A stretch of 64,000 nucleotides of DNA from an uncultured Candidatus Saccharibacteria bacterium (lineage in GTDB: Bacteria; Patescibacteriota; Minisyncoccia; Phycocordibacterales; UBA6899): assembly GCA_964469335.1 (NCBI GenBank), contig CAYXYK010000001.1, positions 235,976-299,975 on the forward strand, given 5' to 3'. Below are positions 4,849 to 62,924 of the stretch, in pieces (within the stretch, counting starts at the first letter, position 1; the number at the start of each line of letters is the position of its first letter). A program made the translations under genes and the position numbers. The notes under the pieces are model-generated. The model saw only the letters and a program-made list of their open reading frames with translations, had not been told where the DNA came from and did no database searches.

Positions 4849-4849
4849 T

Positions 4850-20560: not shown

Positions 20561-20591
20561 TCCATTTTTGACGCGCTACACGTCTTTCCTT

Positions 20592-20660
20592 CGGCGGATC
20601 GAGTCACCGTAGCAGACTACGCATCCTCGATATCACCTTAGTTCAAGACTTCGTACCCCA
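20592..20660. repeat. intergenic element, copy A of a repeated ~60-nt motif in the pilus locus (core CGTAGCAGAC-ACG-ATC-TCGA)
   Basis: TCACCGTAGCAGACTACGCATCCTCGATAT...TTCAAGACTTCG aligns with copy at 24716-24795. Confidence 0.45.
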
Positions 20661-20690
20661 TGCAAAAATGAACCAGAAGAAAAGATAACA

Positions 20691-22490: not shown

Positions 22491-22525
22491 TGCGAAAGCG
22501 ACGAGAATAGCGTAAAATAAGGAAG

Positions 22526-23155: not shown

Positions 23156-23210
23156 AAATACCTCCCTTCAATAATGTTCGGAGACGGAGTACAATTAAAC
23201 TGCGTTCGCA

Positions 23211-49286: not shown

Positions 49287-49297
49287 ATTTTCTTACC

Positions 49298-49330
49298 AAA
49301 CAAAAACCGCTGAAAAGCGGTTTTTGTTTT
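49298..49330. terminator. bidirectional terminator directly after rplB
   Basis: AAACAAAAACCGCTGAAAAGCGGTTTTTGTTTT. Confidence 0.65.
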
Positions 49331-49345
49331 GCCGAGAAAAGAAAT

Positions 49346-49981
49346 TTACAACTGCTTCAAGATGAGTGCTTTGAGGGATTCGGGGGAGAGGTCGGAGTGG
49401 GTGATGCGGAGGAGGGGGAAGTGGGCGGAGAGTAGAATGCGTTCGACTTCCTCGTCGCGCTCTGTGCGGTCTTCGCGCTCATGAGTTGCGTCGTCGAGTT
49501 CGATCACAAGTTTCGGATTGACCCAGACTTTGTCGCAGAGGAGGAAGTCGACAGACTTCTGATTGATATGGCGCATCGCAGCATTCCAGTTTTGACCTTT
49601 GATTTTCCAGTCGATGAAGGTGCTGATGTGCACTTGCGGGAAAATGTAATATTGGTCTCCGGCCGCTTGGTTGAGCGCGTTGAATGCATCATGCTCCGCT
49701 TTCGTCATCACGAACTGCTTAGTCTCGTAGGAGTAGAGTGATTTCGCCATCTCTCCGCTGCTGTCGGCATAATTCCAGGCGCCCCAGATGAATTCGATCA
49801 GTGGAACGATAATGACGGTAAAGAAATTGCGTTTGCCGTTCCACAGAGTCTTATAATGCAGATATTTCTTGCGCAGGATCAAGAATAATACCGTTCCGAT
49901 GATCAAGAAGAACGCAAGAGCGCCGAGTAGCACCAGTCCGACGATCTCTAGCGCAGTTGTGACGGCATGTGATATGTCCAT
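49346..49981 (-). CDS. membrane-anchored protein with DUF559/DUF2726-like PD-(D/E)xK (Vsr-fold) nuclease-like domain
   Basis: N-terminal TM (LEIVGLVLLGALAFFLIIGTVLFLIL); motif SVDFLLCDKVWVNPKLVIELDDATHERED resembles the D...(I/V)E(L/V)DG..H signature of these families. Confidence 0.55.
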   Translation of the reverse strand: MDISHAVTTALEIVGLVLLGALAFFLIIGTVLFLILRKKYLHYKTLWNGKRNFFTVIIVPLIEFIWGAWNYADSSGEMAKSLYSYETKQFVMTKAEHDAFNALNQAAGDQYYIFPQVHISTFIDWKIKGQNWNAAMRHINQKSVDFLLCDKVWVNPKLVIELDDATHEREDRTERDEEVERILLSAHFPLLRITHSDLSPESLKALILKQL

Positions 49982-50075
49982 ACGTGAAGCATAGCAAAGG
50001 CGGGGGTTTGTACAAATGTTCGAACCGTTTCAAGGGAACGGTTCGAACGCCGGGTTACTATGCTATGCTTACTCC

Positions 50076-50384
50076 ATGACACACGAAGGGAATGAGGGAG
50101 TTCCGACTGGGAAAGAGGAGGTGATCGAGGCGCTCTTGCGTGACCCAGAGAACCTTGCTCCACTCCATGAGTACATGGCGGCACGAGAGGCTGCGTGCAG
50201 GAATGGGGCGGATAATCTCCGGCTCACGCTTGATCTCCTTGATATCTATATTGCAGGAGGTGAAGCGTTCCGTGATGCGGCATGGGAGACACTTGATGCG
50301 GCGTTCGATCAGGCAGAAGGCGAAGCCGATGACACAATTATGGCTGAGCTCCGCTTGCGACAGGCGAAATTGCAGGGTGAATAA
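50076..50384 (+). CDS. small acidic hypothetical protein
   Basis: ORF track (start uncertain: 50016 or 50076). Confidence 0.35.
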   Translation: MTHEGNEGVPTGKEEVIEALLRDPENLAPLHEYMAAREAACRNGADNLRLTLDLLDIYIAGGEAFRDAAWETLDAAFDQAEGEADDTIMAELRLRQAKLQGE

Positions 50385-50417
50385 AAACGCACCCCGCGAC
50401 GCGATGCGTGCGGGGTG
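50384..50417 (-). terminator. palindromic terminator, copy 1 of a repeated element (AAAACGCACCCCGCGACGCGATGCGTGCGGGGTG)
   Basis: hairpin + T-run on minus strand, follows 3' end of gene 50430-50792. Confidence 0.6.
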
Positions 50418-50429
50418 ATGTTGTGAAAG

Positions 50430-50792
50430 TCAGCCGAAGGTGACCTGAAAGCGGAACTCCACTTGCGAGTTGCGGACATCCGCCTTGATGGTGACGATGT
50501 CTGCCCATGCCTTCGCGAGTCCGTCGACCATGCTCCGCACCTTGCGACCGGAGGTGAGGCCGTACTCGCCGAGCGAGTAGGTACCGATGTGGCGTCCGTA
50601 AGTGAACAAGTTGTCAATCAAGTCGACATGTTCGAAGAACTCGTTCCAGTCCGGCGGAGCAGCTGCCCTGAGTTCAGCCTTGCGGGGAGCATCGTTCTTG
50701 GCAATTGATGCCAGTTCTTGTTGGAATCGCTCGAGCGAACCTGCGCGGCCGCAGATCGATGCGGCGATGCAGCCGCGGTAGAGGTGGGTCAT
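50430..50792 (-). CDS. hypothetical protein (120 aa)
   Basis: start trimmed to MTHLYRG preceded by AAGGAG RBS; no family recognised. Confidence 0.45.
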   Translation of the reverse strand: MTHLYRGCIAASICGRAGSLERFQQELASIAKNDAPRKAELRAAAPPDWNEFFEHVDLIDNLFTYGRHIGTYSLGEYGLTSGRKVRSMVDGLAKAWADIVTIKADVRNSQVEFRFQVTFG

Positions 50793-50814
50793 TGCTTCTC
50801 CTTGAATTTGAAGA

Positions 50815-51270
50815 TCAGGGTGAGGCCCGCTTGCGAGGACGGACGTTGGGAGCGTTCTCGCCGCAATAGACCTCCGTTGCCGATCCTTCGCGCTTTGCGA
50901 ACAGTTCGAAGAACAGGATGTCCTGACCGTTGTCGCCGATGGTGACGGTGACGCGGTAGCCGGTCCAGCCATGCTTTTCGACGCCGATGATGTCAGCAAA
51001 AAGTGCCATCAGCTGTGCGTCGTTGTTCCTCTCGTTTCGCACCCAGTCGGTGAGATGGCGGTCGCCGTCCTCGCCGGTGTGTTGCATGAGGATGCTGCGC
51101 CACTGGTCGAGGTCGTGGTCCATCGCGCGGTCGCTGTAGCGCGAGGCGCGTCCCTCATCGTCTTCGTAGTCGAGAGGGAACTGGAACTGCCGAAGCAGCA
51201 TGTGGTTGGCATCCCCACGCGAGCCGAGGCGGCTGAAGTCGTGGGGTTCTGCGGGGTACATTCGTGCCAT
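50815..51270 (-). CDS. hypothetical protein (151 aa)
   Basis: ORF track; stop lies 22 bp upstream of next gene start; no family recognised. Confidence 0.45.
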   Translation of the reverse strand: MARMYPAEPHDFSRLGSRGDANHMLLRQFQFPLDYEDDEGRASRYSDRAMDHDLDQWRSILMQHTGEDGDRHLTDWVRNERNNDAQLMALFADIIGVEKHGWTGYRVTVTIGDNGQDILFFELFAKREGSATEVYCGENAPNVRPRKRASP

Positions 51271-51361
51271 GTCGGGCCTCCGTTGTCGGTTGTTTCCGTT
51301 TTGTATTCTGCCTTAACTTTTGGTTTTGTCAATACCATATTGTGCCAGTATACGTTCACAG

Positions 51362-51398
51362 AAAAAACGCACCCCGCGACGCGTATGCGTGCGGGGTG
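51362..51398 (-). terminator. palindromic terminator, copy 2 (AAAAACGCACCCCGCGACGCGTATGCGTGCGGGGTG)
   Basis: near-identical to copy 1; follows 3' end of gene 51404-51868. Confidence 0.6.
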
Positions 51399-51403
51399 TG
51401 GGT

Positions 51404-51868
51404 CTAGTGTCTCCAGTTGAGGACACGACCGCGGAAGGTATCCCTGGTCCTTCCGGTAAAGAGTTCGATGTGGCGGGAAGCGATGGTGAAGGTGAGTCCG
51501 AGTAGCGAGAAGCAGAGGACCGTGCGGTGGGTGATCCTGCCAAAATATGAGATCGTATGCCGCTCAGTGAAACCGAGTTGGTACATCGGTGCATATTCGA
51601 TCGCGACGCTCGTGAGGTCGACACGTGAGACGTGCTGAATAGCGATGACACCCTCGTGTTGTCGCCAGAGATTGAATTGCCCGACACGCACGACGGCATC
51701 GTCGAGCCATAGGTTCTCGAGTCGCCTTGCTTTTCTTCGTTCACGACGATATTTGCTGGCGACTTTTCTCCCGGCGAATGCGGCAATGATCTGCGCTCCT
51801 GCTTCGGTGTCCGCACCTTCGCTCTCGATCATGCGGACGACGGCACTATTCATCAGCATCAGGTTCAT
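51404..51868 (-). CDS. hypothetical protein (154 aa)
   Basis: ORF track; no family recognised. Confidence 0.4.
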   Translation of the reverse strand: MNLMLMNSAVVRMIESEGADTEAGAQIIAAFAGRKVASKYRRERRKARRLENLWLDDAVVRVGQFNLWRQHEGVIAIQHVSRVDLTSVAIEYAPMYQLGFTERHTISYFGRITHRTVLCFSLLGLTFTIASRHIELFTGRTRDTFRGRVLNWRH

Positions 51869-51986
51869 GGGAACTCCCTGTAAAGTTCAGCTGTGCTCAC
51901 CTTACCACCCATAAAAAGGTCCGCAACTCAGGTGACTCGCCATGTTGTGTACGGTATGCTAGCCTCAAGTCAGAAAGGAGCTCGGC

Positions 51987-52220
51987 ATGAAAATGGGATT
52001 ACACACCGAAAAGGGAAGATTCGTCTTCAGTGCAGGCAAGAGTCAAAATGTCGACGACGGCCTGCGAAGAATATCATCACCGAGTTCGATACTCGGTCTT
52101 GCGGTACTTGCGCAGCAGCACACTACCGCGCAGGAGTTCGTACTTTCGTCGGGGGAGAAGTTCGAGTGCCCGTCAAAAGAACATGTGCTCGCACTTGCCA
52201 TCCGCATGATCTATGCTTGA
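51987..52220 (+). CDS. small hypothetical protein (77 aa)
   Basis: AAGGAG 6 nt upstream of ATG 51987. Confidence 0.4.
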   Translation: MKMGLHTEKGRFVFSAGKSQNVDDGLRRISSPSSILGLAVLAQQHTTAQEFVLSSGEKFECPSKEHVLALAIRMIYA

Positions 52221-52279
52221 CGCAACCCACTGCAAGCATAGGATAGAAATGTTCCGTTCAACCACCGAAGGAGACCGAC

Positions 52280-52459
52280 ATGCCGCACGCAGTTGCCAGT
52301 GTGAAGGAAGAACGCCAGCTCGCGTTCGAGAGGGCGAAGGAGGGAATTGACCCCGCAATCGTCGATCGCATCATGAAGGGACTCCCGGTCCCAGGCGACT
52401 CGTCCGGCCGACTGCTCGTCCTGCGCCAAGCCTGGGCCGCATATCGCGACTGCCTGTAG
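52280..52459 (+). CDS. small hypothetical protein (59 aa, below ORF-track cutoff)
   Basis: manual translation MPHAVASVKEERQLAFERAKEGIDPAIVDRIMKGLPVPGDSSGRLLVLRQAWAAYRDCL; GGAG RBS; terminator CACCCGC...GCGGGTG + T8 at 52460-52505. Confidence 0.4.
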   Translation: MPHAVASVKEERQLAFERAKEGIDPAIVDRIMKGLPVPGDSSGRLLVLRQAWAAYRDCL

Positions 52460-52565
52460 TCGCTGCAGCACCCGCCTCCTCGAGAGAGCGGGTGTGTTTT
52501 TTTTGTATAGATAACAGCATGACCCCGTGTGGGGGCATGCTGTTATCTGCTCTTCACTATATTTC

Positions 52566-52754
52566 CTACGGACGCATGCTGTCGGTGAGTGCGCGGCGTC
52601 GCTCAGAGATCTCCTTAGCACGCTTCTTGAGCCTTTCCCCGTAACCGGTCGCTCTCCCCAGCTCTTTGTCCAAAAGGAGATACCTGTGTTCTTCGCTCAC
52701 TCGTTCGAAAGCGCCACCGTCTTCTGCATTACTTGTGATGATACTCTTTGTCAT
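52566..52754 (-). CDS. small charged protein, paralog 1 of a 3-member tandem family
   Basis: MTKSIITSNAEDGGAFERVSEEHRYLLLDKELGRATGYGERLKKRAKEISERRRALTDSMRP; conserved leader TATTATCATTCATACACCCACAGT directly precedes the ATG. Confidence 0.45.
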   Translation of the reverse strand: MTKSIITSNAEDGGAFERVSEEHRYLLLDKELGRATGYGERLKKRAKEISERRRALTDSMRP

Positions 52755-53020
52755 ACTGTGGGTGTATGAATGATAATATCGAGCATACAACAGTGATGAT
52801 GAAAAAATTGTGAAACGGTTCAGGCAAGTAGGCGTTTCGCGAGTGTTCGTGCGTCGCGTCCTTGCTTCGCTGCACTTTCTGCGCGTTCGGCTCGAGCATG
52901 TTCGTCCTTCTCAGATTGCTGTCTCTTCCCGATCGCTATTTGTGCTTCACGCTCTTCATGGTCATGTGTTTCCCGGAGCAATTGCTCAGATGTTTTTGTG
53001 GCAAGCATACTTGGGAGCTA

Positions 53021-53183
53021 GGGACGCAAACTCAGCGTCAATGCCTTCCGTCGGTGTTCTATCTCTTTTGCATGCTCCTTCATCTGTATCTGATAACTCT
53101 TGGTGAACTCAAGACTACGTTCAGATAGTCTCCGCATCTGTTCTCTCTGTTCTTCTCCCCCCGAACTCTTTTTTATATACATA
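53021..53183 (-). CDS. small charged protein, paralog 2 (54 aa, below ORF-track cutoff)
   Basis: manual translation MYIKKSSGGEEQREQMRRLSERSLEFTKSYQIQMKEHAKEIEHRRKALTLSLRP; same leader sequence upstream; C-terminus HAKEIEHRRKALTLSLRP parallels paralog 1. Confidence 0.4.
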
Positions 53184-53260
53184 CCTGTGGGTGTATGAAT
53201 GAATAATATCCGGACATGATACCGAAGCTTGGTGAAAGAAAAATGAAATGCACGCTGCGT

Positions 53261-53617
53261 TCACTTGGTGTGTCCTGCCGTACGCCGGTGTTCCAATTCC
53301 TTCTCATGTTCACTCACATGCATCTGGTGGGTCAGTTCCGCCTCTTCCGCACGTTCCTTATGTATCCGAGCGCTCTCTTTCAGTAGCTCGTCATGCTCTT
53401 TTTCGAATCCCTCATCCCGCTCCTCCTTAGCTCGGCTGGTCGCGCTTCTCTGCTCGCTGTCCGCTTCCGCTGTCCGCTCTTTCTTCTCCCGACCTTCGTT
53501 CTCTTTTGCTCTGCGACTATCTCCGCGTGCAACCTCTTCTTCTCGGGCAACTCGTGCGCGACTTTTCTCGGCGAGTAGCCGTTCTTCAGTCGCTCTTACT
53601 TCGGTTTTTGTAGACAT
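53261..53617 (-). CDS. charged K/E/R-rich protein, paralog 3 (118 aa)
   Basis: C-terminus EHEKELEHRRTAGHTK related to paralogs 1/2; upstream ATTATTCATATCC resembles the shared leader. Confidence 0.45.
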   Translation of the reverse strand: MSTKTEVRATEERLLAEKSRARVAREEEVARGDSRRAKENEGREKKERTAEADSEQRSATSRAKEERDEGFEKEHDELLKESARIHKERAEEAELTHQMHVSEHEKELEHRRTAGHTK

Positions 53618-53628
53618 GGATATGAATA

Positions 53629-53976
53629 ATGGATAATGACCCCATCATAGCGAGCCTGAGTGAGGAGAAAGTGAGTGAAGCTTCTTCATACCTTGTGCTT
53701 TCTGTCGCGAGGCGTAGCATGAGTGGGTCCTTCAAGGAGAAGACCATGTTGCTCTTTTCACGACTCATCGTGCATTTGCTCCCGGCTCCGAACATCATGA
53801 CCGCCCCGAATGCTCTATACCCTCGTCTCTACGACTCTTGCATGAGCGAAGTGGTGCGCTGGCACCGGTCGTGCCTCGCCCGCCTCATCTTCGAGTATCC
53901 GCTCGAGGAAGCCGACCGTGCGATTTCCGCGCATAGATTCCCGGATATGGAAGAGCGGCACCTCTCGCTCTCGTGA
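53629..53976 (+). CDS. hypothetical protein
   Basis: ORF track; terminator GCTCTTC-TC-GAAGAGC + T-run at 53985-54020. Confidence 0.4.
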   Translation: MDNDPIIASLSEEKVSEASSYLVLSVARRSMSGSFKEKTMLLFSRLIVHLLPAPNIMTAPNALYPRLYDSCMSEVVRWHRSCLARLIFEYPLEEADRAISAHRFPDMEERHLSLS

Positions 53977-54039
53977 ACCGAAATGACAAAGAGCTCTTCT
54001 CGAAGAGCCCTTTTTGTTTCATTCGTCTTATGAAGAGAT

Positions 54040-54072
54040 AAAACGAACCCCGCACTCATGTGGTGCGGGGTG
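54040..54072 (-). terminator. palindromic terminator, copy 3 (variant: AAAACGAACCCCGCACTCATGTGGTGCGGGGTG)
   Basis: same AAAACG-ACCCCGC...GCGGGGTG architecture; follows 3' end of gene 54085-54285. Confidence 0.55.
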
Positions 54073-54084
54073 TATGGCTCCAGA

Positions 54085-54285
54085 TCAGCCGATCTTGGTG
54101 CCTTCTGGGCTGTAGACGTGGGCGATGATGCCTTGGCTGAGGAGGTCCTTCGCGAGCGTACGAGCCGCTTCTTCCGTTTCTTTGGTGGGGACACAGAGTC
54201 TCCCTTCTCCGTCCTCATCCCTGTATGCGACAGAGAATTGTCCAGGATTGGTCACTGCATCTTTCGGGGGTTCGGTCCAAGCCAT
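54085..54285 (-). CDS. small hypothetical protein (66 aa)
   Basis: ORF track. Confidence 0.4.
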   Translation of the reverse strand: MAWTEPPKDAVTNPGQFSVAYRDEDGEGRLCVPTKETEEAARTLAKDLLSQGIIAHVYSPEGTKIG

Positions 54286-54447
54286 GCCGGGTTCTCCTTG
54301 TAAAATCCTTTTTCATTTTCTTCGAATTTCACTCCGTGTCAATGTGAAACTTCCCGCCGCGGCGTTACAGGGGAATCATTCTTGAGTTATTCCCTTCGTC
54401 ATGTTTGGATGTACAAGGATTATTCATGTTCACCTGAAGGGGAAATC

Positions 54448-54657
54448 ATGGGATATGATCTCAATCAGTCGTCGGTCCTGAGTCGTCGGCTGTCTCAAAA
54501 GTCGACCGTGCAGCGAGACATCAGTCCATATGACCTTTCTGCGGTCGCCGCTGCAGCTAGAGCACTTGCGGCGCGGCCCGATCCGCCGCCTCAGCTTGAG
54601 AGTCTCTATGATCTCGACACCATCGCCCGCATCGATCGCCATTTTGGTCGCCGCTAG
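54448..54657 (+). CDS. small hypothetical protein
   Basis: start trimmed to MGYDLNQ; terminator GGGAGC-ATCC-GCTCCC + T-run at 54650-54690. Confidence 0.35.
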   Translation: MGYDLNQSSVLSRRLSQKSTVQRDISPYDLSAVAAAARALAARPDPPPQLESLYDLDTIARIDRHFGRR

Positions 54658-54767
54658 AAAAGGGAGCATCCGCTCCCTTTATTTCTTGCACGAGTATTAT
54701 TGACATAAATCAATAATACCGTATAATATACAAAGCTGTATCCCTTGGATCCCTGAAAGGAATCACC

Positions 54768-55145
54768 ATGAAAGTCGTTCTTGTTGCTGAGGATCATCCG
54801 GTCGTCCGGGTCACCCTTGTCGCCCTGCTCGAGACATTCGGCATCTTTACGGTCGTTGCTGTCGAGAACGGTAAGAAAGCGTTGGAGTACCTCGAAACAC
54901 TCCCGCCGCATGTCACGAAGACCCTCCTCATCACCGACTGGGACATGCCGGAGATGACCGGCATCGAGCTGGTGCAGGCTATCCGTGCCGATGCTCGCCT
55001 CATGAGGACGCCGATCATCATGACCAGCAGCCGGACGCCGGAAGAGATCGCCTCTGCCCTTTCGCTAGGGGTGGATGCCTTCATCGACAAGCCTGCCCCG
55101 ACCGATCAGCTCGAAGACCTCGTTCATCGCTATCTCGATTCGTGA
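54768..55145 (+). CDS. orphan single-domain response regulator (receiver only)
   Basis: VLVAEDHPVVR ... LLITDWDMPEMTGIEL ... FIDKP; terminator CACGCGCCC-TCG-GGCGCGTG + T-run at 55153-55185. Confidence 0.8.
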   Translation: MKVVLVAEDHPVVRVTLVALLETFGIFTVVAVENGKKALEYLETLPPHVTKTLLITDWDMPEMTGIELVQAIRADARLMRTPIIMTSSRTPEEIASALSLGVDAFIDKPAPTDQLEDLVHRYLDS

Positions 55146-55243
55146 ATCTCTGACACGCGCCCTCGGGCGCGTGTTCCTTTTTATATTGACAGTACCCACC
55201 GAAAAGCACACTATAAAAATGGATCAATTACTTTGGAGGCTCT

Positions 55244-55609
55244 ATGAGCAATATCAGGATACTCATCGTCGACGATGACAAAGTGTTCCGCGATGCCGCT
55301 GCGAAGTGGCTCGCAAGAGAAGGCTTCGAAGACGTCAGCGTTCTTGGGAATGCGATATCCGCCCTCGAGCGTATCGCCGTCGATGGCGACTATGACCTCC
55401 TCATCACCGACTTCAACATGCCGGAGATGACCGGAGTGCAACTGATCGAACGAGTGCGCTCGCTCGGACGGATCGAACCTCCCAAGTTCATCGTAATGAG
55501 TGCCGGGAAGAATTCCGAGGTCGCACTTCGTGGCGGTGCAGATCGGTTCTTCTCCAAGCTGACACCACTCGACGAGCTGTCTATGGCAATCGCGGAGTTG
55601 TTCCCATGA
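55244..55609 (+). CDS. orphan single-domain response regulator (receiver only)
   Basis: ILIVDDDKVFRD ... LLITDFNMPEMTGVQL ... FFSKL; terminator at 55625-55665. Confidence 0.8.
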   Translation: MSNIRILIVDDDKVFRDAAAKWLAREGFEDVSVLGNAISALERIAVDGDYDLLITDFNMPEMTGVQLIERVRSLGRIEPPKFIVMSAGKNSEVALRGGADRFFSKLTPLDELSMAIAELFP

Positions 55610-55653
55610 TACTTGTCGGAAAAGTGAAAGGCCCCCTTCTCAGGAAGGGGGCC

Positions 55654-56016
55654 TCATTGTTTCTCCTTCGTGTCGAACAGAAGGATTTGTCGTTGTGAAG
55701 GTGGAGGATCGCCGTGCTCTTCGAGCAGCGCGTAGAGGTGTGAAAGGTGAGCGATGCGCGTGAGCGGGTCCAAGATGTAGAGACTTGAGAACCGGTCGTA
55801 GGCGCGAATACGGCGGAGGACGAGGGACCGCGCATGGCCGGAGTCACCAACCCCGAGGGTCGGGTTCGCTCTTCGCCAAGCAAGTAATTCATCGAAGCTC
55901 AGACACTCCTCATTGAAAACACTGTTCTCTCGGTAGCTCCGTTCAAACAGCAATGCTACGCCAACGAGCATCGAAAGTGAGATCAGGCTCTGTATCGCGA
56001 CTGCCGGATGATCCAT
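55654..56016 (-). CDS. small hypothetical membrane protein
   Basis: ORF track; one TM helix. Confidence 0.4.
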   Translation of the reverse strand: MDHPAVAIQSLISLSMLVGVALLFERSYRENSVFNEECLSFDELLAWRRANPTLGVGDSGHARSLVLRRIRAYDRFSSLYILDPLTRIAHLSHLYALLEEHGDPPPSQRQILLFDTKEKQ

Positions 56017-56091
56017 GGGCTTCTCCAGGTTGAGGGAAGGGCGTCTGCTTATAGTTATGCCAAATTAGGGTATTTTGGCAAGGGGACGAGT

Positions 56092-56919
56092 ATGTCACGC
56101 GGGAGAAACGAGAGTGTTACAATGATCGCAATGAAGAAAACACTCAGCATCGGCGTGGGACTCCTCACTCTTATTATTATTCTCCTTATTGGCAAATGGG
56201 CGATGATTGGTCGCGATGCCGTGAGTGTAACCCCCCCGACTCCTTTGCCTGAGTCATCGCTCGCTTCATACAAAAATGATACGTTCGGTGTTTCTTTCTC
56301 ATATCCGAAAGCGATCACTCCGGAGACAGAGTTCAAGTCGTTCTACCACCTCAGTTCCGACTGGCGTGTGGGCGAGTCAGATGACGTGAGCGGAACACCT
56401 CTCGTCGCGATCCCGCTCTATCGCATCGATAATGGGGGAGTATATAAGAGCTACCCGATGTATTACTCCGCCGAGCTCCGCGTGGGAGTAAGTACGAGTA
56501 GTGTTGCCCTTGCCGAGTGTCTCACTGGAGGAAAGGAAAACAATCTCGAGTTAGGTGAAGGTCCGACCACCACGGTGATCAATGGCATCGAGTGGAAGAA
56601 AGTCCCCGTCGGCTCTGGTGGTATGATGCAGTTTCTATACGGGAACAGTTATCGCTTGATTCGAGGTGACACATGTATCACCGTCGAGACACTCAAGACG
56701 GGAAGTAACTATCGTGACACACCTTCACCCGAAGATATCTCCGATGTCGATCTCGAGTCGCACTATACTGCCCTCGATACCATCCTTGCAACTCTGCACG
56801 TCGATTTCACCGGAGTGCACTGCGGAGGCAATATCCGCACTGCACCGACATGTCCAAACGGATATCATTGCCAGCTCGGGACAATCCCAGACGTTGGCGG
56901 TAGTTGTGTCGCCGACTGA
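56092..56919 (+). CDS. hypothetical secreted/membrane-anchored protein with Cys-rich C-terminus
   Basis: start chosen at MSRGRNE after GGGGA RBS (alternatives 56119/56128); TM/signal TLSIGVGLLTLIIILLIG; C-terminal CGGNIRTAPTCPNGYHCQLGTIPDVGGSC. Confidence 0.5.
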   Translation: MSRGRNESVTMIAMKKTLSIGVGLLTLIIILLIGKWAMIGRDAVSVTPPTPLPESSLASYKNDTFGVSFSYPKAITPETEFKSFYHLSSDWRVGESDDVSGTPLVAIPLYRIDNGGVYKSYPMYYSAELRVGVSTSSVALAECLTGGKENNLELGEGPTTTVINGIEWKKVPVGSGGMMQFLYGNSYRLIRGDTCITVETLKTGSNYRDTPSPEDISDVDLESHYTALDTILATLHVDFTGVHCGGNIRTAPTCPNGYHCQLGTIPDVGGSCVAD

Positions 56920-56928
56920 ACCAAGATC

Positions 56929-57138
56929 ATGAAACATTTGAATGAACAGACAGAAGCAATAGCTCGTTCGATCAGCGATGCATCGCAGATGAAAGGGATA
57001 CAGTGGAATCGCGTCACCTGGTATTCATGGTGGCTTGCTATCATTCTTTTTTGTGTGGTCATTCCCGCACTCTCGTTCTATATCGGTGTGCAGTATGAGA
57101 TCACCAAAGAAGCTGCCCGCGAAGCACATGTAAGGTAA
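56929..57138 (+). CDS. small membrane protein (69 aa)
   Basis: ORF track; WYSWWLAIILFCVVIPALSFYIG helix. Confidence 0.4.
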   Translation: MKHLNEQTEAIARSISDASQMKGIQWNRVTWYSWWLAIILFCVVIPALSFYIGVQYEITKEAAREAHVR

Positions 57139-57211
57139 CTTGCATGAACGTATTTCCCGAGTAGAGTATTGAAGGAATAATTTTGTACGTTCTCAATGAA
57201 GAGGAGCCACC

Positions 57212-57610
57212 ATGGAGAAACATTCTCAAGTGCTTTTGGTCACAAGGAACAGACATGCCCGCCAAGCACTGGCGAGAAGGGTGTCAGCGATCGGACATGA
57301 AGTCATCGACGTGCACAGTGCCGCCACCGCATTCGACCTGCTCGTCGGAAGAGCATGCAACCCCGTGAAACCGCAGTTCGCCCTCGTCATCGTCGAGCGG
57401 GATTCTGTCGAGATTCCCGCGATCAGTCTGGTCGACGAGATGCGTAGTGGGGATCGGACCAACGCCATCCCTGTTCTGATCGTCGCACAGCGATTGACCG
57501 ACAGTGATCAAGTGGCGGCACATCGACTCGGGCACTGCCGGGTCATCAAGCACAGCTCAGACGACCGGGTGCTCCGTGCCGGGATCGGTTCCCTCACCGG
57601 AGTGAGATGA
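57212..57610 (+). CDS. degenerate receiver-like domain protein (pseudo-receiver)
   Basis: GAGGAG RBS; receiver-like layout (VLLVTRNRHA ... ALVIVERDSV ... VLIVAQ) but the N-terminal acidic pair is replaced by TRN. Confidence 0.55.
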   Translation: MEKHSQVLLVTRNRHARQALARRVSAIGHEVIDVHSAATAFDLLVGRACNPVKPQFALVIVERDSVEIPAISLVDEMRSGDRTNAIPVLIVAQRLTDSDQVAAHRLGHCRVIKHSSDDRVLRAGIGSLTGVR

Positions 57611-57701
57611 ATGAATGGCCGCGTCTTTGGATGCGGTCATGTTTTTTATAAAAAAGAACCCCGAGCACATGATCGTGTCGGGGGGGGGTGAGAATCGGTA
57701 C

Positions 57702-57977
57702 TCATGCTGCCTCAGCGGTTGCGGGCAGGTGCTTCCTGCGGAGGTGCAGGTAGGTACGTGCCGGACATTTGCCACCCTCTCCGCATGGATGGCCACCCTG
57801 AGCGGAGAGCGAGAACTCGCGGATCGCTGCACTGCAGTCGCATTTGTCGTTCGCGACCAGAGGACAATCCTTGGCGTCGCTGTAGGGAGTTCCTCTCCCG
57901 GTATCCTCCATGAAGATCGAATAGAACGTTTCCCTTGTCACCGCCATGGGAGCAATATGTGTCGCTCGACGGGGCAT
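57702..57977 (-). CDS. small Cys-containing hypothetical protein
   Basis: AAGGAG RBS before ATG 57977; CPLVANDKCDC ... HPCGEGGKCP; terminator at 57650-57695; competing overlapping ORFs rejected. Confidence 0.35.
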   Translation of the reverse strand: MPRRATHIAPMAVTRETFYSIFMEDTGRGTPYSDAKDCPLVANDKCDCSAAIREFSLSAQGGHPCGEGGKCPARTYLHLRRKHLPATAEAA

Positions 57978-58124
57978 GATCATCTCCTTGAAATGAAAGG
58001 TACAGAAAAAAAGGCGCTACCAGCGGGTAGCGCCTTTCCAGGTTGAGACATGTGTCTTCACTGGGATTCATTCTCTTCCTTTCGCTGTGTTGTGTAAAGT
58101 GAGTAGTGTGGACAAGATGGTGGC

Positions 58125-58343
58125 TCAATGAGTGAGTTTTCCGGTGATGGCGGTCTGCTCTATGAGCTGGACTTCCTGTTCGGGTTGGATGACCACTTTC
58201 GTCGGACGGGAGATGATCTTTCCAGTGCTGTCACCTCCGCGCACCTCGTCCACTCTTCCTTCGAAGGTCTTCCGGAAGAGCGGCGAACGGCCAGGTGACA
58301 ACACCGCAAAGATGTCACCGGTGCTCAGGTCTTTGTATCGCAT
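58125..58343 (-). CDS. small hypothetical protein (72 aa)
   Basis: AAGGGAG RBS 6 nt before ATG 58343; terminator GGCGCTACC-AGC-GGGTAGCGCC at 58003-58040 downstream. Confidence 0.45.
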   Translation of the reverse strand: MRYKDLSTGDIFAVLSPGRSPLFRKTFEGRVDEVRGGDSTGKIISRPTKVVIQPEQEVQLIEQTAITGKLTH

Positions 58344-58468
58344 GGCACACTCCCTTAGGTTGGACTCGGCTCATCTTATTCAGAATGACGGGCTCGTCAA
58401 ATACCTGTTTCTTTTTGCTGATGTGCGGCGTTATAATTGCATACAACTTATTCCATTCATTTTCACCA

Positions 58469-59049
58469 TGAAAAAGACATTCATCGTCATCGCTATCATC
58501 CTTGTGCTCGCCCTCCTTCCGCTTCTCGGCACATATAATAGTATCGTCGCGCTGAATCAGGACACCGCGGCAAAATGGTCGCAAGTAGAGGGACAATACC
58601 AGCGTCGCATGGACCTCATTCCGAATTTGGTCGCTACCGTAAAGGGAGCTGCGAACTTCGAGCAGACGACACTTACTGCGGTGGTCGAGGCGCGTGCAAA
58701 AGCCACCCAAGTGACGGTCGATCCGAGCAAGCTCGACGCCGAAAGCATCGCAAAGTATCAGGCGGCACAGGGCGAACTTTCGAGTGCACTCGGAAAATTG
58801 CTGATGATCACCGAGAACTACCCGACGCTTACCGCGACCGAGAACTTCAAAGACCTGCAGTCGCAGATCGAAGGAACCGAGAACCGCATCGCGGTATCAC
58901 GAAAAGATTTCGGCGACTCGGTGCAAACCTATAACACGAAGGTTTCTCAGTTTCCGGGCAATATCGTCGCGAAACTTTTTGGCTTCGCCCCCAAGGCATA
59001 CTTTAAGGCAGACCAAAGCGCGGCAGCCGCTCCTTCTGTTGCATTCTAA
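58469..59049 (+). CDS. lemA: LemA-family membrane protein
   Basis: start trimmed to MKKTFIVIAIIL; LemA-like NSIVALNQDTAAKWSQVEGQYQRRMDLIPNLV region. Confidence 0.8.
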
Positions 59050-59061
59050 ATCGATCACGAT

Positions 59062-59943
59062 ATGAAGCGCATATTTCTTCTCGTTGCGCTTGGTCTCGTC
59101 TTCGTACCGGGGACGCTGTTCGCCTATACTTCCCCGGGTGCTCCAAGCGGATATGTGAATGATTTCGCTTCAGTCCTTACACAGGAAGAACGAACGACAC
59201 TCGAAGCAACGCTCAAAGATTTCCATCAAGAGTACGGTGGGGAAGTGGGCGTCGTCACCGTCCCAACACTCGGAGGTGATGCGATCGAGGATTATGCGAA
59301 TACATTATTCCGTGAATGGGGGATCGGACAGAAAGATAAGAACAACGGCGTATTGCTGGTCGTTGCGATTGAAGACAGGAGCCTACGCATCGAAGTTGGA
59401 TATGGGTACGAAGGCTCGCTCACTGATGCCCGCTCATCTGAGATCATCAGAAATGCGATTACTCCCTATTTCAAACAGAATGCATACGGGCTCGGCATCA
59501 TGACAGGAGTGAAGGACATCATCACGACGGTGACGACCGGAGAAGTCCCCGTCGAGCATCAAGATACTTCGGTCGGATTGCCTACCCAAGATACCCTCAC
59601 GACTTGGCTCTTTGTGCTCTTCGTCATATTTCCGTGGATCGCAAGCGTGTTCGGAAGAAGTAAATCGTGGTGGGCAGGCGGTATCGCCGGTGCCGCAGTC
59701 GGAAGCCTAGTCTCCGTTCTTTTTGGATTGGCATCGTGGGTGTATCCGGTCATCGTAGCTACGATCATCGGACTCATATTCGACCTGATCGTGTCGAGGG
59801 GGTACCGTAGCAGCGTCGCTTCAGGCTCCCGCCCACCATGGTGGACCGGGGGAGGCGGTTTTGGAGGAGGGAGTTCAAGTGGAGGGTTCGGAGGGTTTGG
59901 CGGAGGGTCGTCCGGTGGAGGTGGAGCGAGTGGACGTTGGTGA
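59062..59943 (+). CDS. TPM-domain (YgcG-like) protein with Gly-rich C-terminus
   Basis: signal peptide, TPM-like NGVLLVVAIEDRSLRIEVGYG region, TM, terminal GGGFGGGSSSGGFGGFGGG; usual LemA partner. Confidence 0.8.
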   Translation: MKRIFLLVALGLVFVPGTLFAYTSPGAPSGYVNDFASVLTQEERTTLEATLKDFHQEYGGEVGVVTVPTLGGDAIEDYANTLFREWGIGQKDKNNGVLLVVAIEDRSLRIEVGYGYEGSLTDARSSEIIRNAITPYFKQNAYGLGIMTGVKDIITTVTTGEVPVEHQDTSVGLPTQDTLTTWLFVLFVIFPWIASVFGRSKSWWAGGIAGAAVGSLVSVLFGLASWVYPVIVATIIGLIFDLIVSRGYRSSVASGSRPPWWTGGGGFGGGSSSGGFGGFGGGSSGGGGASGRW

Positions 59944-59944
59944 A

Positions 59945-60898
59945 CTATCCGATCAACACCGAGCGCATCGATATACTCCCGTGCGCAATGCCTTCGACCG
60001 GAAAGCTCGGTCCTTCGTCTTCTTCCTCTAGCCCTAATATATAGAGCAGCGGCCAGTAGTGGTCCGGCGTCGGGATCGAAAGCGCAGCAGCATGTCCGAG
60101 CCCTTCGTAGTTCAAGAGTGTGGTGTGGTCATGTTTCAATATCAGGTCCTTCGCAGCATTGTCGAAATCCGCTGCCCATGCGAATTCTCTCGCACCCTCA
60201 TTGAAATCGATCATGCTGAGGTTGTGCACGATATTGCCGCTCCCAAGGATCAGCACTCCGCGTCTCCGCAGTATCGCGAGTTCTTTCGCGAGTGCATAGT
60301 GCTCTTTGTGTGAACGGGTCATGTCGATACTCATTTGAAACACCGGTATTTCGGCGGCGGGGTACATCCGATGCAGCACTATCCATGTGCCATGGTCGAT
60401 ACCCCAATCGATGTCAGGGCGGACTACGGTGCCAGTGACCGCCTCGCGGGTAGCATTCGCATAGACGGGTGATCCCGGGCATGGATAGTTGAGATCGTAG
60501 AGCTGTTTCGGGAAGCCCCAGAAATCATGGATCGTGCGTGGGTGTTCGGCTATATGCACCTCTGTCCCGCGAGTGAGCCAATGTGCGGAGATCGACAGGA
60601 TTGCTACTGGCTTCGGTAGCGATTTCCCGAGGGTTTCCCATCCTAACGAAAAGGCGTTGTCTTCGATCCCGTTCATTGGAGAGCCATGCCCAACAAATAA
60701 AGCCGGCATACGCTTTGTTTTCGGGAGGTCACTCAGTTTTGCCAATAGTCCAAGGCCAGTCATCCGTCCATTGTCTCGCCCGATCGGACCAGAGTCAATT
60801 TTCGCCCCCATCCCCAAAGGGGTGGATAACCCCATATCGATGTGAGCTGTAGCGTATATAATGATAAGTACGAGTATTTCGCACCTTGCGCGCTGCAT
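59945..60898 (-). CDS. LigB-type extradiol ring-cleavage dioxygenase class III (YgiD-like) with N-terminal signal-like extension
   Basis: MPALFVGHGSPMN start of catalytic domain, HWLTRG, LILGSGNIVHNL motifs. Confidence 0.75.
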   Translation of the reverse strand: MQRARCEILVLIIIYATAHIDMGLSTPLGMGAKIDSGPIGRDNGRMTGLGLLAKLSDLPKTKRMPALFVGHGSPMNGIEDNAFSLGWETLGKSLPKPVAILSISAHWLTRGTEVHIAEHPRTIHDFWGFPKQLYDLNYPCPGSPVYANATREAVTGTVVRPDIDWGIDHGTWIVLHRMYPAAEIPVFQMSIDMTRSHKEHYALAKELAILRRRGVLILGSGNIVHNLSMIDFNEGAREFAWAADFDNAAKDLILKHDHTTLLNYEGLGHAAALSIPTPDHYWPLLYILGLEEEDEGPSFPVEGIAHGSISMRSVLIG

Positions 60899-61330
60899 GT
60901 GTTCTCATGTTTTGAGAAACGAACAGGACGTAGTGTGTGAAAAATTCCATTCCATGTGGTTCTCTCACACTACGTCCCTACAGTTCAAATGATGAAGTGA
61001 CGGAAAAAACGGCGCCGAGTCAGATGAATTGTGCATCTTTCGTATCAACACATGTCGAGCCATCCTTGTATCTACAGCAACAAGAGAGAAGGACGGTGAA
61101 GAGAAACGAGAGGGACAAATTCTTTGTGCAAGGTGTAAAAATGTAGAGAGCCCAAGCTGCAACGCGCCACGTTGTTTTCGGACAGAGAAGGTCCTGTAGA
61201 CCTCACCGCCCGGAATGCACGCTCATCGAAAGATGGCACCAAGCAAACAAAACACCGTACCCGGCAAGGTGCGGTGTTTTGATTTGCTGAAAAGGAAAGC
61301 GCGCACCAAGAGGTGCGCGCTTTGTTGCGA

Positions 61331-61693
61331 CTAGAGGAACATCCAGATGAACGAGAAGGCGATGACCGCATACAGCAACCACGATCGATCCTTGAGTGCT
61401 GTTGCCCAGGGTCTGTCGACCCAGCTGGTGACATCTTCCCAGACGAAGTAAATGATCAGGGCTGAAACGGCGCCGGAAGCGAACTTCCCGAGTAGCGGCA
61501 GTCCGAATACGAACAGCAGCTTACTGAGGGCAACAGTCGCAATCACTGCGATGAGTTGGTCGCGGATGATCGGGGGGCGGATTCCCCACGGCGGCTCACC
61601 GAGCTTTCCGTATCCGAAGTAGCTCGGTATCCACCAAGCGAGGACGATCAACAGCCCGTATCCGAACAAGATGCCGAGGATATGCATGAACAT
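61331..61693 (-). CDS. hypothetical multi-TM membrane protein
   Basis: ORF track; hairpin terminators at 61254-61325 downstream. Confidence 0.5.
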   Translation of the reverse strand: MFMHILGILFGYGLLIVLAWWIPSYFGYGKLGEPPWGIRPPIIRDQLIAVIATVALSKLLFVFGLPLLGKFASGAVSALIIYFVWEDVTSWVDRPWATALKDRSWLLYAVIAFSFIWMFL

Positions 61694-61755
61694 GAGAGGT
61701 CTCCTGTGAAGTCCAGCATAAAAATAGCAAGCAAGACTATTCTGTCAACACAAAG

Positions 61756-62808
61756 CTATTTGATCAGCATTCCGTCACCGAACGAGTAAAAACGGAAATT
61801 GTTCGCGATCGCGATCTCATAGAGATCAAGGATGCGGCGTTTCGCCCCCTTGTGCTCGAGGAAAGCATCAACGAGAAGCATCAGCGATGATTTTGGTACA
61901 TGGAAATTGGTTATGAGCGCGTCAGCTACCTTGAATCGATACGGAGGGAATATGAAGATATCCGTTCTGTCCTCGCGCGGAGTGATGAGCGCTTCACTAC
62001 TACGCACGCTTGCCGCAGATTCAAGCGTGCGTAGCGCGGTCGTACCTACGGGGATGATCGGCGTGTGCGCACGGTGAGCCGTGTCGATGATCTTCGCCGC
62101 TGTTTTGCCGATCATGTAGTATTCGGTGAAAAGTTTCTTTGATCGGATATTCGATTCGTCGATCGGGGCGAATGTTCCCGCTCCGACATGAAGAGTGACT
62201 TCGGTGCGACGGACTCCGCTGTGGTCGAGCTTCCGTAAGAGTCTGTTGGTGAAATGTAGACTTGCGGTCGGCGCCGCTACCGATGCCGGATGTTTTGCGA
62301 GCACGCTTTGATACTTCTCTCGGAGCGTCGGCTCTGAGAGCGGTGAGCGTTTGATGTACGGAGGGATCGGTGTGACTCCTTCCTTTGCGAGCAGTTCCCA
62401 CAGCTGGACCCTCTCTACGCTCGGCTTGAAAAAGAAGAATTGTTCATCTTGCCTGACTGTTTCGAGTAAAGCTCCTGATCGAAAATACAATTTTGCACCA
62501 ACAGTAAGTTTTCTGTCGACGATGCCCTTTACGAGGGTGTCTTCTGGTCGCAGCTCGTTCATTTGTAGGAATACCTGGATCTTCCCACCGCTCTCTTTGG
62601 TGAGCCATAAGCGCGCAGGCACGACCTTTGTGTCATTGAAGACCAAGGTGCTTTTCGGGGGTACGTGCCTGTCGAGATGAAGGAAGGTATCGAATTCCAC
62701 AGTATCCGTAGTAGTGTCATAGATGAACAATCTACTGCTGTCGCGTGGCGAAGCAGGTGTGGAAGCGATCAGTCTCTGGGGAAGTTGATAATCATACTGC
62801 TCGAGCAT
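61756..62808 (-). CDS. queA: S-adenosylmethionine:tRNA ribosyltransferase-isomerase
   Basis: N-terminus DYQLPQRLIASTPASPRDSSRLFIY and overall QueA layout. Confidence 0.9.
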   Translation of the reverse strand: MLEQYDYQLPQRLIASTPASPRDSSRLFIYDTTTDTVEFDTFLHLDRHVPPKSTLVFNDTKVVPARLWLTKESGGKIQVFLQMNELRPEDTLVKGIVDRKLTVGAKLYFRSGALLETVRQDEQFFFFKPSVERVQLWELLAKEGVTPIPPYIKRSPLSEPTLREKYQSVLAKHPASVAAPTASLHFTNRLLRKLDHSGVRRTEVTLHVGAGTFAPIDESNIRSKKLFTEYYMIGKTAAKIIDTAHRAHTPIIPVGTTALRTLESAASVRSSEALITPREDRTDIFIFPPYRFKVADALITNFHVPKSSLMLLVDAFLEHKGAKRRILDLYEIAIANNFRFYSFGDGMLIK

Positions 62809-62924
62809 GGAAATAATGTAGCAATTTATTCATTCTCTGCAATAGAACCACTTCGAGAACAGCTTTTACCTGAATATGCTGTCTAGGGATGGCTCTGCGT
62901 ACTGTGGTAGAATTTTGCCATTGT

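Follow-up and report, generated by a model that had tools for sequence, protein, structure and literature searches.

Orphan single-domain response regulators are common, and CheY exemplifies the stand-alone receiver class. The CheY proteins of Escherichia coli and Helicobacter pylori consist of a single (beta-alpha)5 receiver domain, some 120 to 125 residues long, with no output domain, and they have five catalytic residues, an aromatic switch residue, and an acceptor segment of the form DW(D/N)MPxM(T/D)G. Receiver domains, those of CheY and other regulators alike, catalyze their own phosphorylation from small donors, and regulators without an output domain are less typical of classical kinase-regulator pairs. 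Some CheY paralogs act as phosphate sinks, among them CheY1 of Sinorhizobium meliloti and members of the multiple CheY set of Rhodobacter sphaeroides; such proteins are usually encoded within che clusters. Receivers that have lost the phosphoacceptor aspartate are also known: the plant PRR proteins, which have glutamate at the acceptor position, the N-terminal domain of KaiA, FrzS, and HP1043. EpsW of Myxococcus xanthus is an orphan single-domain regulator that receives its phosphate from the CheA-type kinase DifE (PMC4671073) and works by binding its target enzyme (PMC12802240).

The window considered here is a 64-kb stretch, its contig measuring 409 kb or more, and it encodes three stand-alone receiver-fold proteins, RR1, RR2, and RR3, which appear to belong to an old, vertically inherited chromosomal cluster of a Parcubacteria-like lineage of the candidate phyla radiation (CPR), whose members have small genomes. 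Their open reading frames are exactly those of the original prediction. RR1 and RR2 have the complete catalytic site of a canonical receiver, RR3 does not, and no histidine kinase is encoded near any of them. The features discussed below are as follows; promoters and terminators are predicted.

1005-5996, + strand: che operon, containing the only kinase of the window, a candidate phosphodonor
1005-1616, + strand: CheW (che operon)
1652-2032, + strand: CheY (che operon); REC domain E=2.5e-29, best NCBIfam model CheY_Halo, 97 bits
2050-3129, + strand: CheB (che operon)
3160-4848, + strand: CheA (che operon)
4736-5512, + strand: CheC/X (che operon)
5505-5996, + strand: CheD (che operon)
50016-50384, + strand: p110, homolog (34 to 41% identity, full length) of the gene that lineages L004 and L008 have directly 5' of RR1
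50385-54730, no strand: ORFan stretch separating p110 from RR1; gene content varies among strains and lineages
54700-54727, + strand: sigma-70-like promoter 5' of RR1, TTGACA-16-TATAAT, 12/12 consensus matches
54731-55363, no strand: mosaic (recombination) tract, 82% identical to near-clonal strain L094 against a background of 99.4 to 99.6%
54768-55145, + strand: RR1, stand-alone canonical receiver, 125 aa; Pfam REC E=1.1e-21
55152-55175, + strand: intrinsic-terminator-like hairpin 3' of RR1; 10 pairs, 7 of them GC, T-rich tail
55244-55609, + strand: RR2, stand-alone canonical receiver, 121 aa; Pfam REC E=4.4e-18
55629-55654, both strands: bidirectional terminator-like hairpin common to RR2 (+) and p120 (-); 11 to 12 pairs, 8 of them GC, scored on both strands
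55654-56016, - strand: p120, 120 aa, predicted N-terminal membrane helix, convergent with RR2
56092-56919, + strand: p275, signal-anchored; extracytoplasmic domain, Cys-rich C terminus; 68 to 84% identity in L008 and L012
56929-57138, + strand: p69, small membrane protein, a conserved member of the cluster; 83 to 88% identity in L004 and L012, dN/dS 0.04 to 0.05
57212-57610, + strand: RR3, stand-alone aspartate-less pseudo-receiver, 132 aa (degenerate site, AlphaFold/Foldseek, profile search)
57615-57640, + strand: terminator-like hairpin 3' of RR3
57702-57983, - strand: p93, small Cys/His-rich protein, convergent with RR3
58125-58343, - strand: p72, conserved small cluster protein; 67 to 76% identity in other lineages

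RR1 and RR2 are matched over their full lengths by the Pfam Response_reg family, with 77.5 and 65.9 bits, respectively, against a gathering cutoff of 30.2 for PF00072, and the Pfam scan found no second domain in either protein. Their acceptor motifs read D57-WDMPEMTG and D56-FNMPEMTG. Each has the whole catalytic quintet of acidic pair, aspartate, threonine or serine, and lysine (E8/D9, D57, S87, and K108 in RR1; D10/D11, D56, S86, and K105 in RR2), as well as phenylalanine at the aromatic switch position (F105 and F102). The reference quintet, to which both were aligned, is that of E. coli CheY, D12/D13/D57/T87/K109; the acidic pair follows strand beta1, and the aspartate, the threonine or serine, and the lysine close beta3, beta4, and beta5, respectively. 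These residues are invariant in five RR1 orthologs and are kept in the RR2 orthologs with a single exception, the S/T position, which is T in L008. All three receiver genes are under purifying selection, with dN/dS values of 0.10 to 0.29 for RR1, 0.16 to 0.37 for RR2, and 0.12 to 0.19 for RR3. The original description of RR1 and RR2 as canonical single-domain receivers with a DxxMPxMTG acceptor region thus stands, and by sequence both are genuine orphan response regulators that are predicted to be phosphorylatable.

The top PDB matches of RR1 and of RR2 are CheY proteins, the best for RR1 being H. pylori CheY1 (61 bits), and all of the structural traits given above for CheY are shared. Unlike CheY, however, RR1 and RR2 are encoded outside the che operon, 50 kb from cheA, with no flagellar switch genes in view; the operon has a different CheY, and identity to E. 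coli CheY is only about 30%. With the curated NCBIfam model for CheY (NF007901), whose cutoff is 189 bits, RR1 scores 53.7 and RR2 41.9. The receiver models for RssB, EpsW, CheY, and PhoB score the two proteins about equally (42 to 56 bits) and far below their cutoffs, some of the non-CheY models doing as well as the CheY model or better, and the comparison does not place RR1 or RR2 within the CheY family proper. Three observations speak against taking them as extra sinks or outputs of the Che system: its operon already has a CheY, RR1 and RR2 are only 28 to 31% identical to that protein and far below the NCBIfam CheY cutoff, and CheA of this type is found in far more lineages than RR1.

The likeness to EpsW lies in organization. 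EpsW too is an orphan single-domain regulator encoded apart from a CheA-type donor, as we propose for RR1 and RR2, and it too acts through protein-protein contact. The EpsW model (NF041866) is the second-best NCBIfam match of RR1, over its full length, but the scores of 56 bits for RR1 and 32.7 for RR2 are far from the cutoff of 200, so RR1 is not an EpsW ortholog; there are also no phosphoglycosyl transferase or exopolysaccharide synthesis genes beside RR1 and RR2. The phosphate-sink CheYs offer a different parallel, several single-domain receivers beside one CheA, of which the extra ones could drain its phosphate, although RR1 and RR2 are unlinked to the che operon, form transcription units of their own, and occur in a sub-lineage only. 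A scan of reference genomes with highly degenerate alignment patterns returned RR1-like receivers at 28 to 40% identity among the best 80 listed. Four or five of these 80 lie in che clusters and about 35 near orthodox kinases, with no kinase detected at the rest; such mixed contexts carry no che-specific signal, and the lineage of RR1 itself is absent among the matches listed.

RR3 is a receiver of another kind. It was originally described as receiver-like, which is right for the fold but missed that the phosphoacceptor chemistry is gone: the acidic pair is replaced by T11/R12, the acceptor aspartate by E62, and the threonine by A92. E62-R63-D64 and A92 are invariant in seven orthologs, whereas K113 is present in close relatives only. 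The window protein has no Pfam match and does not reach the gathering score of PF00072, and its orthologs, at 25.9 and 18.1 bits, likewise stay below the REC cutoff of 30.2. An RR3 profile nonetheless matches ordinary REC proteins (E=4e-9 to 1e-3). The AlphaFold2 model (pLDDT, 68.8; beta3 not resolved) has the (beta-alpha)5 fold, and every one of the 50 PDB matches listed by Foldseek is a receiver domain (probability, 1.0; TM score, 0.6 to 0.7). Sequence and model together indicate a receiver fold that is probably no longer phosphorylatable at the canonical site. RR3 resembles the known pseudo-receivers in keeping the fold while losing the acidic pocket and the aspartate, with glutamate in its place as in the plant PRR proteins; it differs in being a stand-alone protein with no Pfam match and with invariant motifs of its own, E62-R63-D64 and H104-R105...C109-R110. 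These aspartate-less, stand-alone receivers make up a small, lineage-restricted family that had not been classified before, with only two clusters at 50% identity among 1.84 billion representative proteins and no match in an alignment scan of metagenome contigs. RR3 has no DNA-binding domain, and its automatic IMG name, "OmpR family DNA-binding regulator," is therefore inappropriate.

The cluster runs in the order p110, RR1, RR2, p120, p275, p69, RR3, p93, p72, LemA, TPM, and it sits in a block that parts rplB from rpsS. Individual terminators for RR1 and RR2, part of the original prediction, are both present as hairpins (55152-55175 and 55629-55654), and each of the two genes has a promoter-like site of its own; together with the other predicted signals they suggest that RR1, RR2, and RR3 are transcribed separately. 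From RR1 to LigB, gene order is kept across lineages down to 33 to 53% protein identity, and the synteny recurs in independently assembled contigs of four lineages, so the cluster is not a chance arrangement. Since homologs of p110 lie directly 5' of RR1 in two of these lineages, we take p110 to be the older left edge of the cluster.

Several of the small neighbors are themselves conserved. p120 is 54 to 87% identical in three other lineages and 100% identical in strain variant L094, with H90 and H101 invariant; it has no match in Pfam, NCBIfam, or PADLOC, and its single-sequence AlphaFold model is unusable (pLDDT, 47.8). p275 has no family match in Pfam or NCBIfam, and an alignment scan of metagenome contigs found no match for it. 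p93 has six invariant residues (C40, C48, C50, H65, C67, and C73), and its ATG is preceded by an AAGGAG ribosome-binding site. We considered p120 and p110 as a hidden Hpt or kinase and found no support: neither has a Pfam match, and p110 lacks an invariant histidine.

Kinases were surveyed with Pfam across the 64 kb of the window, in about 70 open reading frames that included the large ones throughout and every one of at least 200 residues in the block from rplB to queA. CheA alone matched HATPase_c or Hpt, which upholds the earlier statement that it is the only kinase of the window, about 50 kb away. The rplB-queA block has no HisKA, HATPase_c, or Hpt match and no unassigned frame of 200 residues or more except the extracytoplasmic p275, and no kinase was found in the related contigs L001, L004, L005, L008, L009, L012, and L094. 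The receivers are thus without a cognate kinase nearby, as had been claimed, and there is no histidine kinase adjacent to them, as in a classical linked two-component pair, here or in the relatives. CheA has Hpt (residues 10 to 100), dimerization (157 to 230), HATPase (281 to 410), and CheW (416 to 549) domains. It has no match to the P2 domain (PF07194), which more distant archaeal CheAs do match.

The same che operon occurs in relatives, and the metagenome-assembled genome GCA_964367955.1 has both this operon (contig 52, CheA 83% identical) and, on contig 36, the RR cluster. There are more than 70 sequence clusters of this type of CheA (50 to 100% identity), with NCBI assemblies as the source of at least 10. 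For RR1 there are seven, of which only one (P0003) is listed with an NCBI source; the RR1 of the window, itself on the NCBI source contig, is a member of the JGI-represented cluster. CheA of this type thus occurs in far more lineages than RR1, so the Che system has no obligate need of the RR cluster as a component. The window has type IV pilus genes at 17459-24689 and no flagellar genes, and a literature search on chemotaxis genes in Parcubacteria or Patescibacteria found nothing directly relevant.

With no kinase in the cluster, the phosphodonor of RR1 and RR2 would be encoded elsewhere, and the likeliest single donor would be the P2-less CheA, 50 kb away, through its P1 (Hpt) domain. The account that we tentatively prefer, at somewhat short of even chances, is that RR1 and RR2 are phosphorylatable orphans of a vertically inherited cluster with CheA as their likeliest donor and RR3 as a non-phosphorylatable partner. 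Lacking output domains, RR1 and RR2 would have to act by phosphorylation-dependent protein-protein contacts; if CheA is the donor, they would serve the Che pathway as accessory branches or as phosphate sinks, much as EpsW does for DifE, and RR3 would most likely be a non-phosphorylatable binding partner or scaffold. The original suggestion that RR1 and RR2 are additional CheY-like phosphate sinks or Che-pathway outputs is plausible, because CheA is the sole kinase of the window and has no recognizable P2 domain, kinases are few in the CPR, the two loci co-occur in one metagenome-assembled genome, and EpsW and DifE set a precedent. The sequences show the domains, the intact or lost catalytic residues, the lack of a local kinase, the synteny, and the purifying selection, while CheA as donor, the way in which RR1 and RR2 act, and the part played by RR3 are inferred.

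RR1 and RR2 are ordinary as such, orphan single-domain response regulators being common, and the lack of an adjacent kinase is usual for the class. The modest value of the finding lies in the host, a member of the CPR/Patescibacteria, which have very few sensory kinases. Five receiver-fold proteins (CheY, CheB, RR1, RR2, and RR3) are encoded beside one CheA in 64 kb, which suggests that one CheA may serve several outputs in reduced, pilus-bearing, probably episymbiotic cells. The current understanding of two-component signaling is unchanged by RR1 to RR3.

It is possible, though we think it doubtful, that RR1 and RR2 instead have as partners one or two orthodox histidine kinases from other parts of the genome, as unlinked pairs that have nothing to do with chemotaxis. 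Their generic receivers, which RssB, EpsW, CheY, and PhoB models score alike, the orthodox kinases near about 35 of the best 80 RR1-like loci, the CheY that the che operon has of its own, and the distribution of the RR cluster, much narrower than that of the operon, all agree with such pairs, and CPR genomes average a few kinases (PMC10805038). These kinases are nevertheless scarce, at about 3 per 1,000 genes (mean, 0.289 per 100 genes in CPR metagenome-assembled genomes [PMC10805038]). No orthodox kinase lies within the 64 kb or on any related contig, and the lack of output domains in RR1 and RR2 is less typical of classical pairs.

RR1 and RR2 might also need no dedicated kinase, either taking phosphate from small molecules such as acetyl phosphate and thereby reporting metabolic state or acting unphosphorylated. 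Receiver domains can phosphorylate themselves from small donors, no kinase is linked to the cluster in any lineage, and 19% of CPR metagenome-assembled genomes have none at all (PMC10805038); yet a CheA is present in this very genome, and pta-ackA genes were not seen in the 64-kb window. The full catalytic set under purifying selection does not discriminate, because it fits kinase-free and kinase-dependent readings equally. On balance we regard this explanation as unlikely.

A more elaborate form of the CheA account is improbable to a like degree. Here p110, RR1, RR2, p120, p275, p69, RR3, and p93 would together form a lineage-specific, kinase-less CPR signaling branch fed by the P2-less CheA, in which the targets of RR1, RR2, and the Glu-for-Asp RR3 would be membrane or surface proteins, or else the type IV pili with which the cells attach to a host, with RR3 mimicking a permanently "on" partner. 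If so, the allelic exchange at the N terminus of RR2 and across RR1 between near-clonal strains would reflect selection on this interface.

Very unlikely is the original proposal of an island-encoded signaling module, that is, receivers as cargo of a mobile or defense island inserted in the ribosomal protein operon: the block does interrupt rplB-rpsS, adjoins a DUF2726 nuclease-like gene and many ORFans, has slightly raised G+C (0.55 to 0.57 at 49 to 52 kb), and includes a recombination tract over RR1 and the start of RR2, but neither an integrase, a transposase, nor a tRNA turned up there, repeats flanking it were likewise not found, the RR1-to-LigB order is syntenic at low protein identity, and the neighbors LemA, TPM, LigB, and QueA are of housekeeping type. 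The two tRNAs found with Rfam and ARAGORN are both distant from the cluster. PADLOC and PHROGs, applied to the receivers, their neighbors, and the ORFans, gave one match, of DUF2726 to a PHROG without an assigned function, and thus no defense or phage family. The ORFan stretch itself has no Pfam, PHROG, or PADLOC family, and in two related lineages p110 abuts RR1 with no such stretch between them. Given the purifying selection and cross-lineage synteny, the RR genes belong to a conserved chromosomal cluster, with the variable ORFans (about 50.4 to 54.7 kb) beside it.

The mosaic tract takes in the RR1 leader, RR1, the spacer, and codons 1 to 40 of RR2. A diversity-generating mechanism was considered for 54731-55363 and rejected: the differences fall in coding and noncoding DNA alike, and the L094 allele has many substitutions in common with the L004 lineage, a pattern that fits homologous recombination.

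The three proteins originally predicted as stand-alone receivers or receiver-like were recovered at the same coordinates, and the claim that RR1 and RR2 each have their own terminator agrees with hairpins, terminator-like by consensus match, 3' of both genes. The features of the cluster are as follows.

Upstream of RR1: perfect promoter-like TTGACA-16-TATAAT (consensus match)
54768-55145: RR1, receiver, 125 aa, full-length Pfam Response_reg (E=1.1e-21)
55152-55175: terminator-like hairpin 3' of RR1 (consensus match)
55244-55609: RR2, receiver, 121 aa, full-length Pfam Response_reg (E=4.4e-18)
55629-55654: terminator-like hairpin 3' of RR2, scoring on both strands and common to the convergent gene of the small protein p120
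57212-57610: RR3, receiver-like protein, 132 aa
57615-57640: terminator-like hairpin 3' of RR3 (consensus match)

RR1 and RR2 add two members to a well-known class, the orphan single-domain response regulators, and Pfam detects no second domain in either. In alignments with E. coli CheY and with the proteins' own orthologues, the catalytic set is E8/D9, D57, S87, and K108 in RR1 and D10/D11, D56, S86, and K105 in RR2, with F105 and F102, respectively, as the aromatic switch. The predicted DxxMPxMTG acceptor region reads DWDMPEMTG in RR1 and DFNMPEMTG in RR2. Nei-Gojobori dN/dS values against orthologues (0.10-0.29 for RR1, 0.16-0.37 for RR2, and 0.12-0.19 for RR3) indicate purifying selection on all three.

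RR3 has no Pfam match, even at E≤5, and phmmer pairs it only weakly with receivers in the PDB (E=0.01). Its AlphaFold2 model (mean pLDDT, 68.8) has the order b1-a1-b2-a2-...-a3-b4-a4-b5-a5, with b3 unresolved, and resembles no PDB structures other than receiver domains (Foldseek probability, 1.0; TM, 0.6-0.7), which bears out the description "receiver-like." Orthologues from two more distant lineages score 25.9 and 18.1 bits with the receiver (REC) model, under its cut-off of 30.2. The acidic pair is replaced by T11/R12 (A/H and A/P in the most distant orthologues), the acceptor Asp by E62, and the Thr by A92, and the Lys (K113) is retained in close relatives only; E62-R63-D64, A92, and H104-R105...C109-R110 are invariant in seven orthologues, down to 33% identity. 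A profile of RR3 plus four homologues, searched against 1.84 billion representative proteins, found true relatives in only two clusters (E=1e-71 and 7e-20), the next matches (E=4e-9 to 1e-3) being ordinary proteins with Response_reg in all nine checked. The fold matches, the replaced active site, and the conservation among orthologues together mark RR3 as a conserved stand-alone aspartate-less pseudo-receiver, a new and narrow family inside that known class. Convergent with RR3 is p93 (57702-57983, minus strand), a conserved 93-aa Cys/His-rich protein with invariant C40, C48, C50, H65, C67, and C73; it has no family match and may be a small zinc-binding protein.

About 70 ORFs, among them the large ones across the window, were scanned with Pfam, and HATPase_c and Hpt domains turned up in CheA (3160-4848) alone, so CheA stands as the sole kinase of the window. 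Its operon (1005-5996) has the order CheW-CheY-CheB-CheA-CheC/X-CheD; it includes CheC/X and CheD but, as far as the window shows, neither MCP nor CheR. The predicted lack of a kinase near the receivers likewise holds for the block from rplB to queA and for the related contigs with the same gene order. Every ORF of at least 200 aa in the block is assigned (DUF2726, LemA, TPM, LigB, and QueA) except p275, a signal-anchored, mostly extracytoplasmic protein, which leaves no room there for a canonical kinase. The kinase-free contigs, all assembled independently from other samples, are L001 and L002 (99.5% and 100% identical to the window at the DNA level), the strain variant L094, and more distant ones in which RR1 is 90% (L012), 76% (L004/L005), and 53% (L008/L009) identical. 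Because this order recurs in independent assemblies, an adjacent kinase hidden by an assembly artefact, the refuting case named with the original prediction, is ruled out.

The receivers belong to a conserved chromosomal cluster that adjoins a variable region and are not island cargo. The gene immediately upstream of RR1 is not conserved between lineages, and the content of the ORFan stretch (50.4-54.7 kb) differs even between strains. Synteny from RR1 to LigB is kept in all four lineages, and searches at the receiver cluster and the ORFan stretch gave no integrase, tRNA, long repeat, defence family, or informative phage family; an island-encoded signalling module, as once proposed, is therefore very improbable. 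The product of p110 (50016-50384) is 34-41% identical to that of the gene abutting RR1 in L004 and L008, which makes the 4.3-kb ORFan stretch a later insertion or rearrangement in an older cluster. The same protein has a weak Pfam match to CATRA-N (CASPASE and TPR repeat-associated N-terminal domain; E=0.0017, 18.7 bits, cut-off 27). About 1.5 kb (52180-53693) is missing from L094 and holds tandem small, highly charged minus-strand ORFs (52566-52790, 53018-53182, and 53261-53617) with a common C-terminal motif, …AKEIxxRRxALTxSxRP, and no family match; identity reaches 40% in the best pair, and 52820-53008, lying among them, is at best a doubtful relative.

In L012, DUF2726...RR1-RR2...LemA-TPM-LigB-QueA lies between rplB (L2) and rpsS (S19); in the window, the block lies past the end of L2 at 49286 and extends beyond QueA (61756-62808). 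A block of ~13.5 kb (window 49286-62808; L012 2057-15701) thereby splits the S10 operon of ribosomal proteins, a highly conserved one, between rplB and rpsS; its genes lie on both strands and comprise DUF2726, ORFans, the receiver cluster, LemA, TPM, LigB, and QueA. QueA is followed by S19, L22, and a truncated next gene in L012 and by an additional beta-lactamase-family gene (62889-63932) in the window.

RR1 and RR2 share 35% identity with each other, and their identity with CheY is 28-31% for the operon protein and 30-32% for that of E. coli. In the PDB, they match CheY proteins best (H. pylori CheY1, ~61 bits; E. coli CheY, 41-52 bits), and the NCBIfam receiver models of RssB, EpsW, CheY, and PhoB score near-equally (42-56 bits), far under cut-offs; the operon CheY is distinct (CheY_Halo, 97 bits). 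These near-equal scores and low identities indicate a generic stand-alone receiver rather than a CheY family member, and the automatic IMG names (CheY for RR1 and RR2, OmpR-family for RR3) should be read accordingly. Four or five of the best 80 RR1-like receivers listed from reference genomes (28-40% identity) lie within che clusters.

The suggestion that RR1 and RR2 are extra CheY-like sinks or outputs of the Che pathway is plausible: CheA is the sole kinase in view and one MAG (GCA_964367955.1) carries both the receiver cluster and the che operon, but the operon already has its own CheY and the receivers lack a CheY-family signal. We tentatively favor CheA as their phosphodonor. Only 56 residues separate its Hpt and dimerisation domains, and it has no match to the CheY-docking domain P2 (PF07194), which more distant archaeal CheAs have, so partner choice would rest on P1 alone. 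The short architecture (556-590 aa without recognisable P2) is common to >70 related clusters. M. xanthus offers a precedent: its orphan single-domain regulator EpsW receives phosphate from DifE, a CheA-type kinase (PMC4671073), and works by binding its target enzyme (PMC12802240). Kinases are also scarce in CPR MAGs, with 0.289 per 100 genes on average and none at all in 19% of these MAGs (PMC10805038), which likewise favors CheA. On the other side, CheA of this type forms >70 clusters (50-100% identity), of which at least 10 come from NCBI assemblies, and RR1 only seven, a single one listed with an NCBI source; the receiver cluster would thus be no more than an accessory branch of a sub-lineage.

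Supply by an unlinked orthodox kinase is somewhat less likely than supply by CheA; such kinases lie within 10 kb of about 35 of the best 80 RR1-like receivers listed (none was detected for the remainder with limited queries). That RR1 and RR2 work independently of any kinase is improbable. The findings stay within known two-component biology; their modest interest comes from the CPR setting and from a possible wiring of one CheA to several outputs.

The closest named relatives of CheA are from Candidatus Lloydbacteria (53% identity), Candidatus Uhrbacteria, and "Patescibacteria group bacterium." The window has type IV pilus genes (17459-24689; PilB 17459-19297, PilC 19343-20560, and pilin 22526-23155), no flagellar genes within its 64 kb, and genes for ComEC, RNase Y, and a short trigger factor (12742-13791, minus strand; 349 aa) with N- and C-terminal domains and no PPIase domain detected between them. 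The CheA relatives and this gene content suggest a Parcubacteria-like CPR bacterium, in which the three receivers are on an NCBI contig of 409,444 bp.

From 53.8 to 60.4 kb, the window shares 99.4-99.6% identity with L094, except for one sharply bounded tract of ~630 bp (54731-55363; L094 13340-13975) with 82% identity and ~135 differences, spanning the RR1 leader, RR1, the spacer, and RR2 codons 1-40. The L094 allele has many substitutions in common with the L004 lineage, and the tract looks like an import of an RR1/RR2-N allele by homologous recombination, which disfavors hypermutation as its origin; all catalytic residues are intact in the L094 allele.
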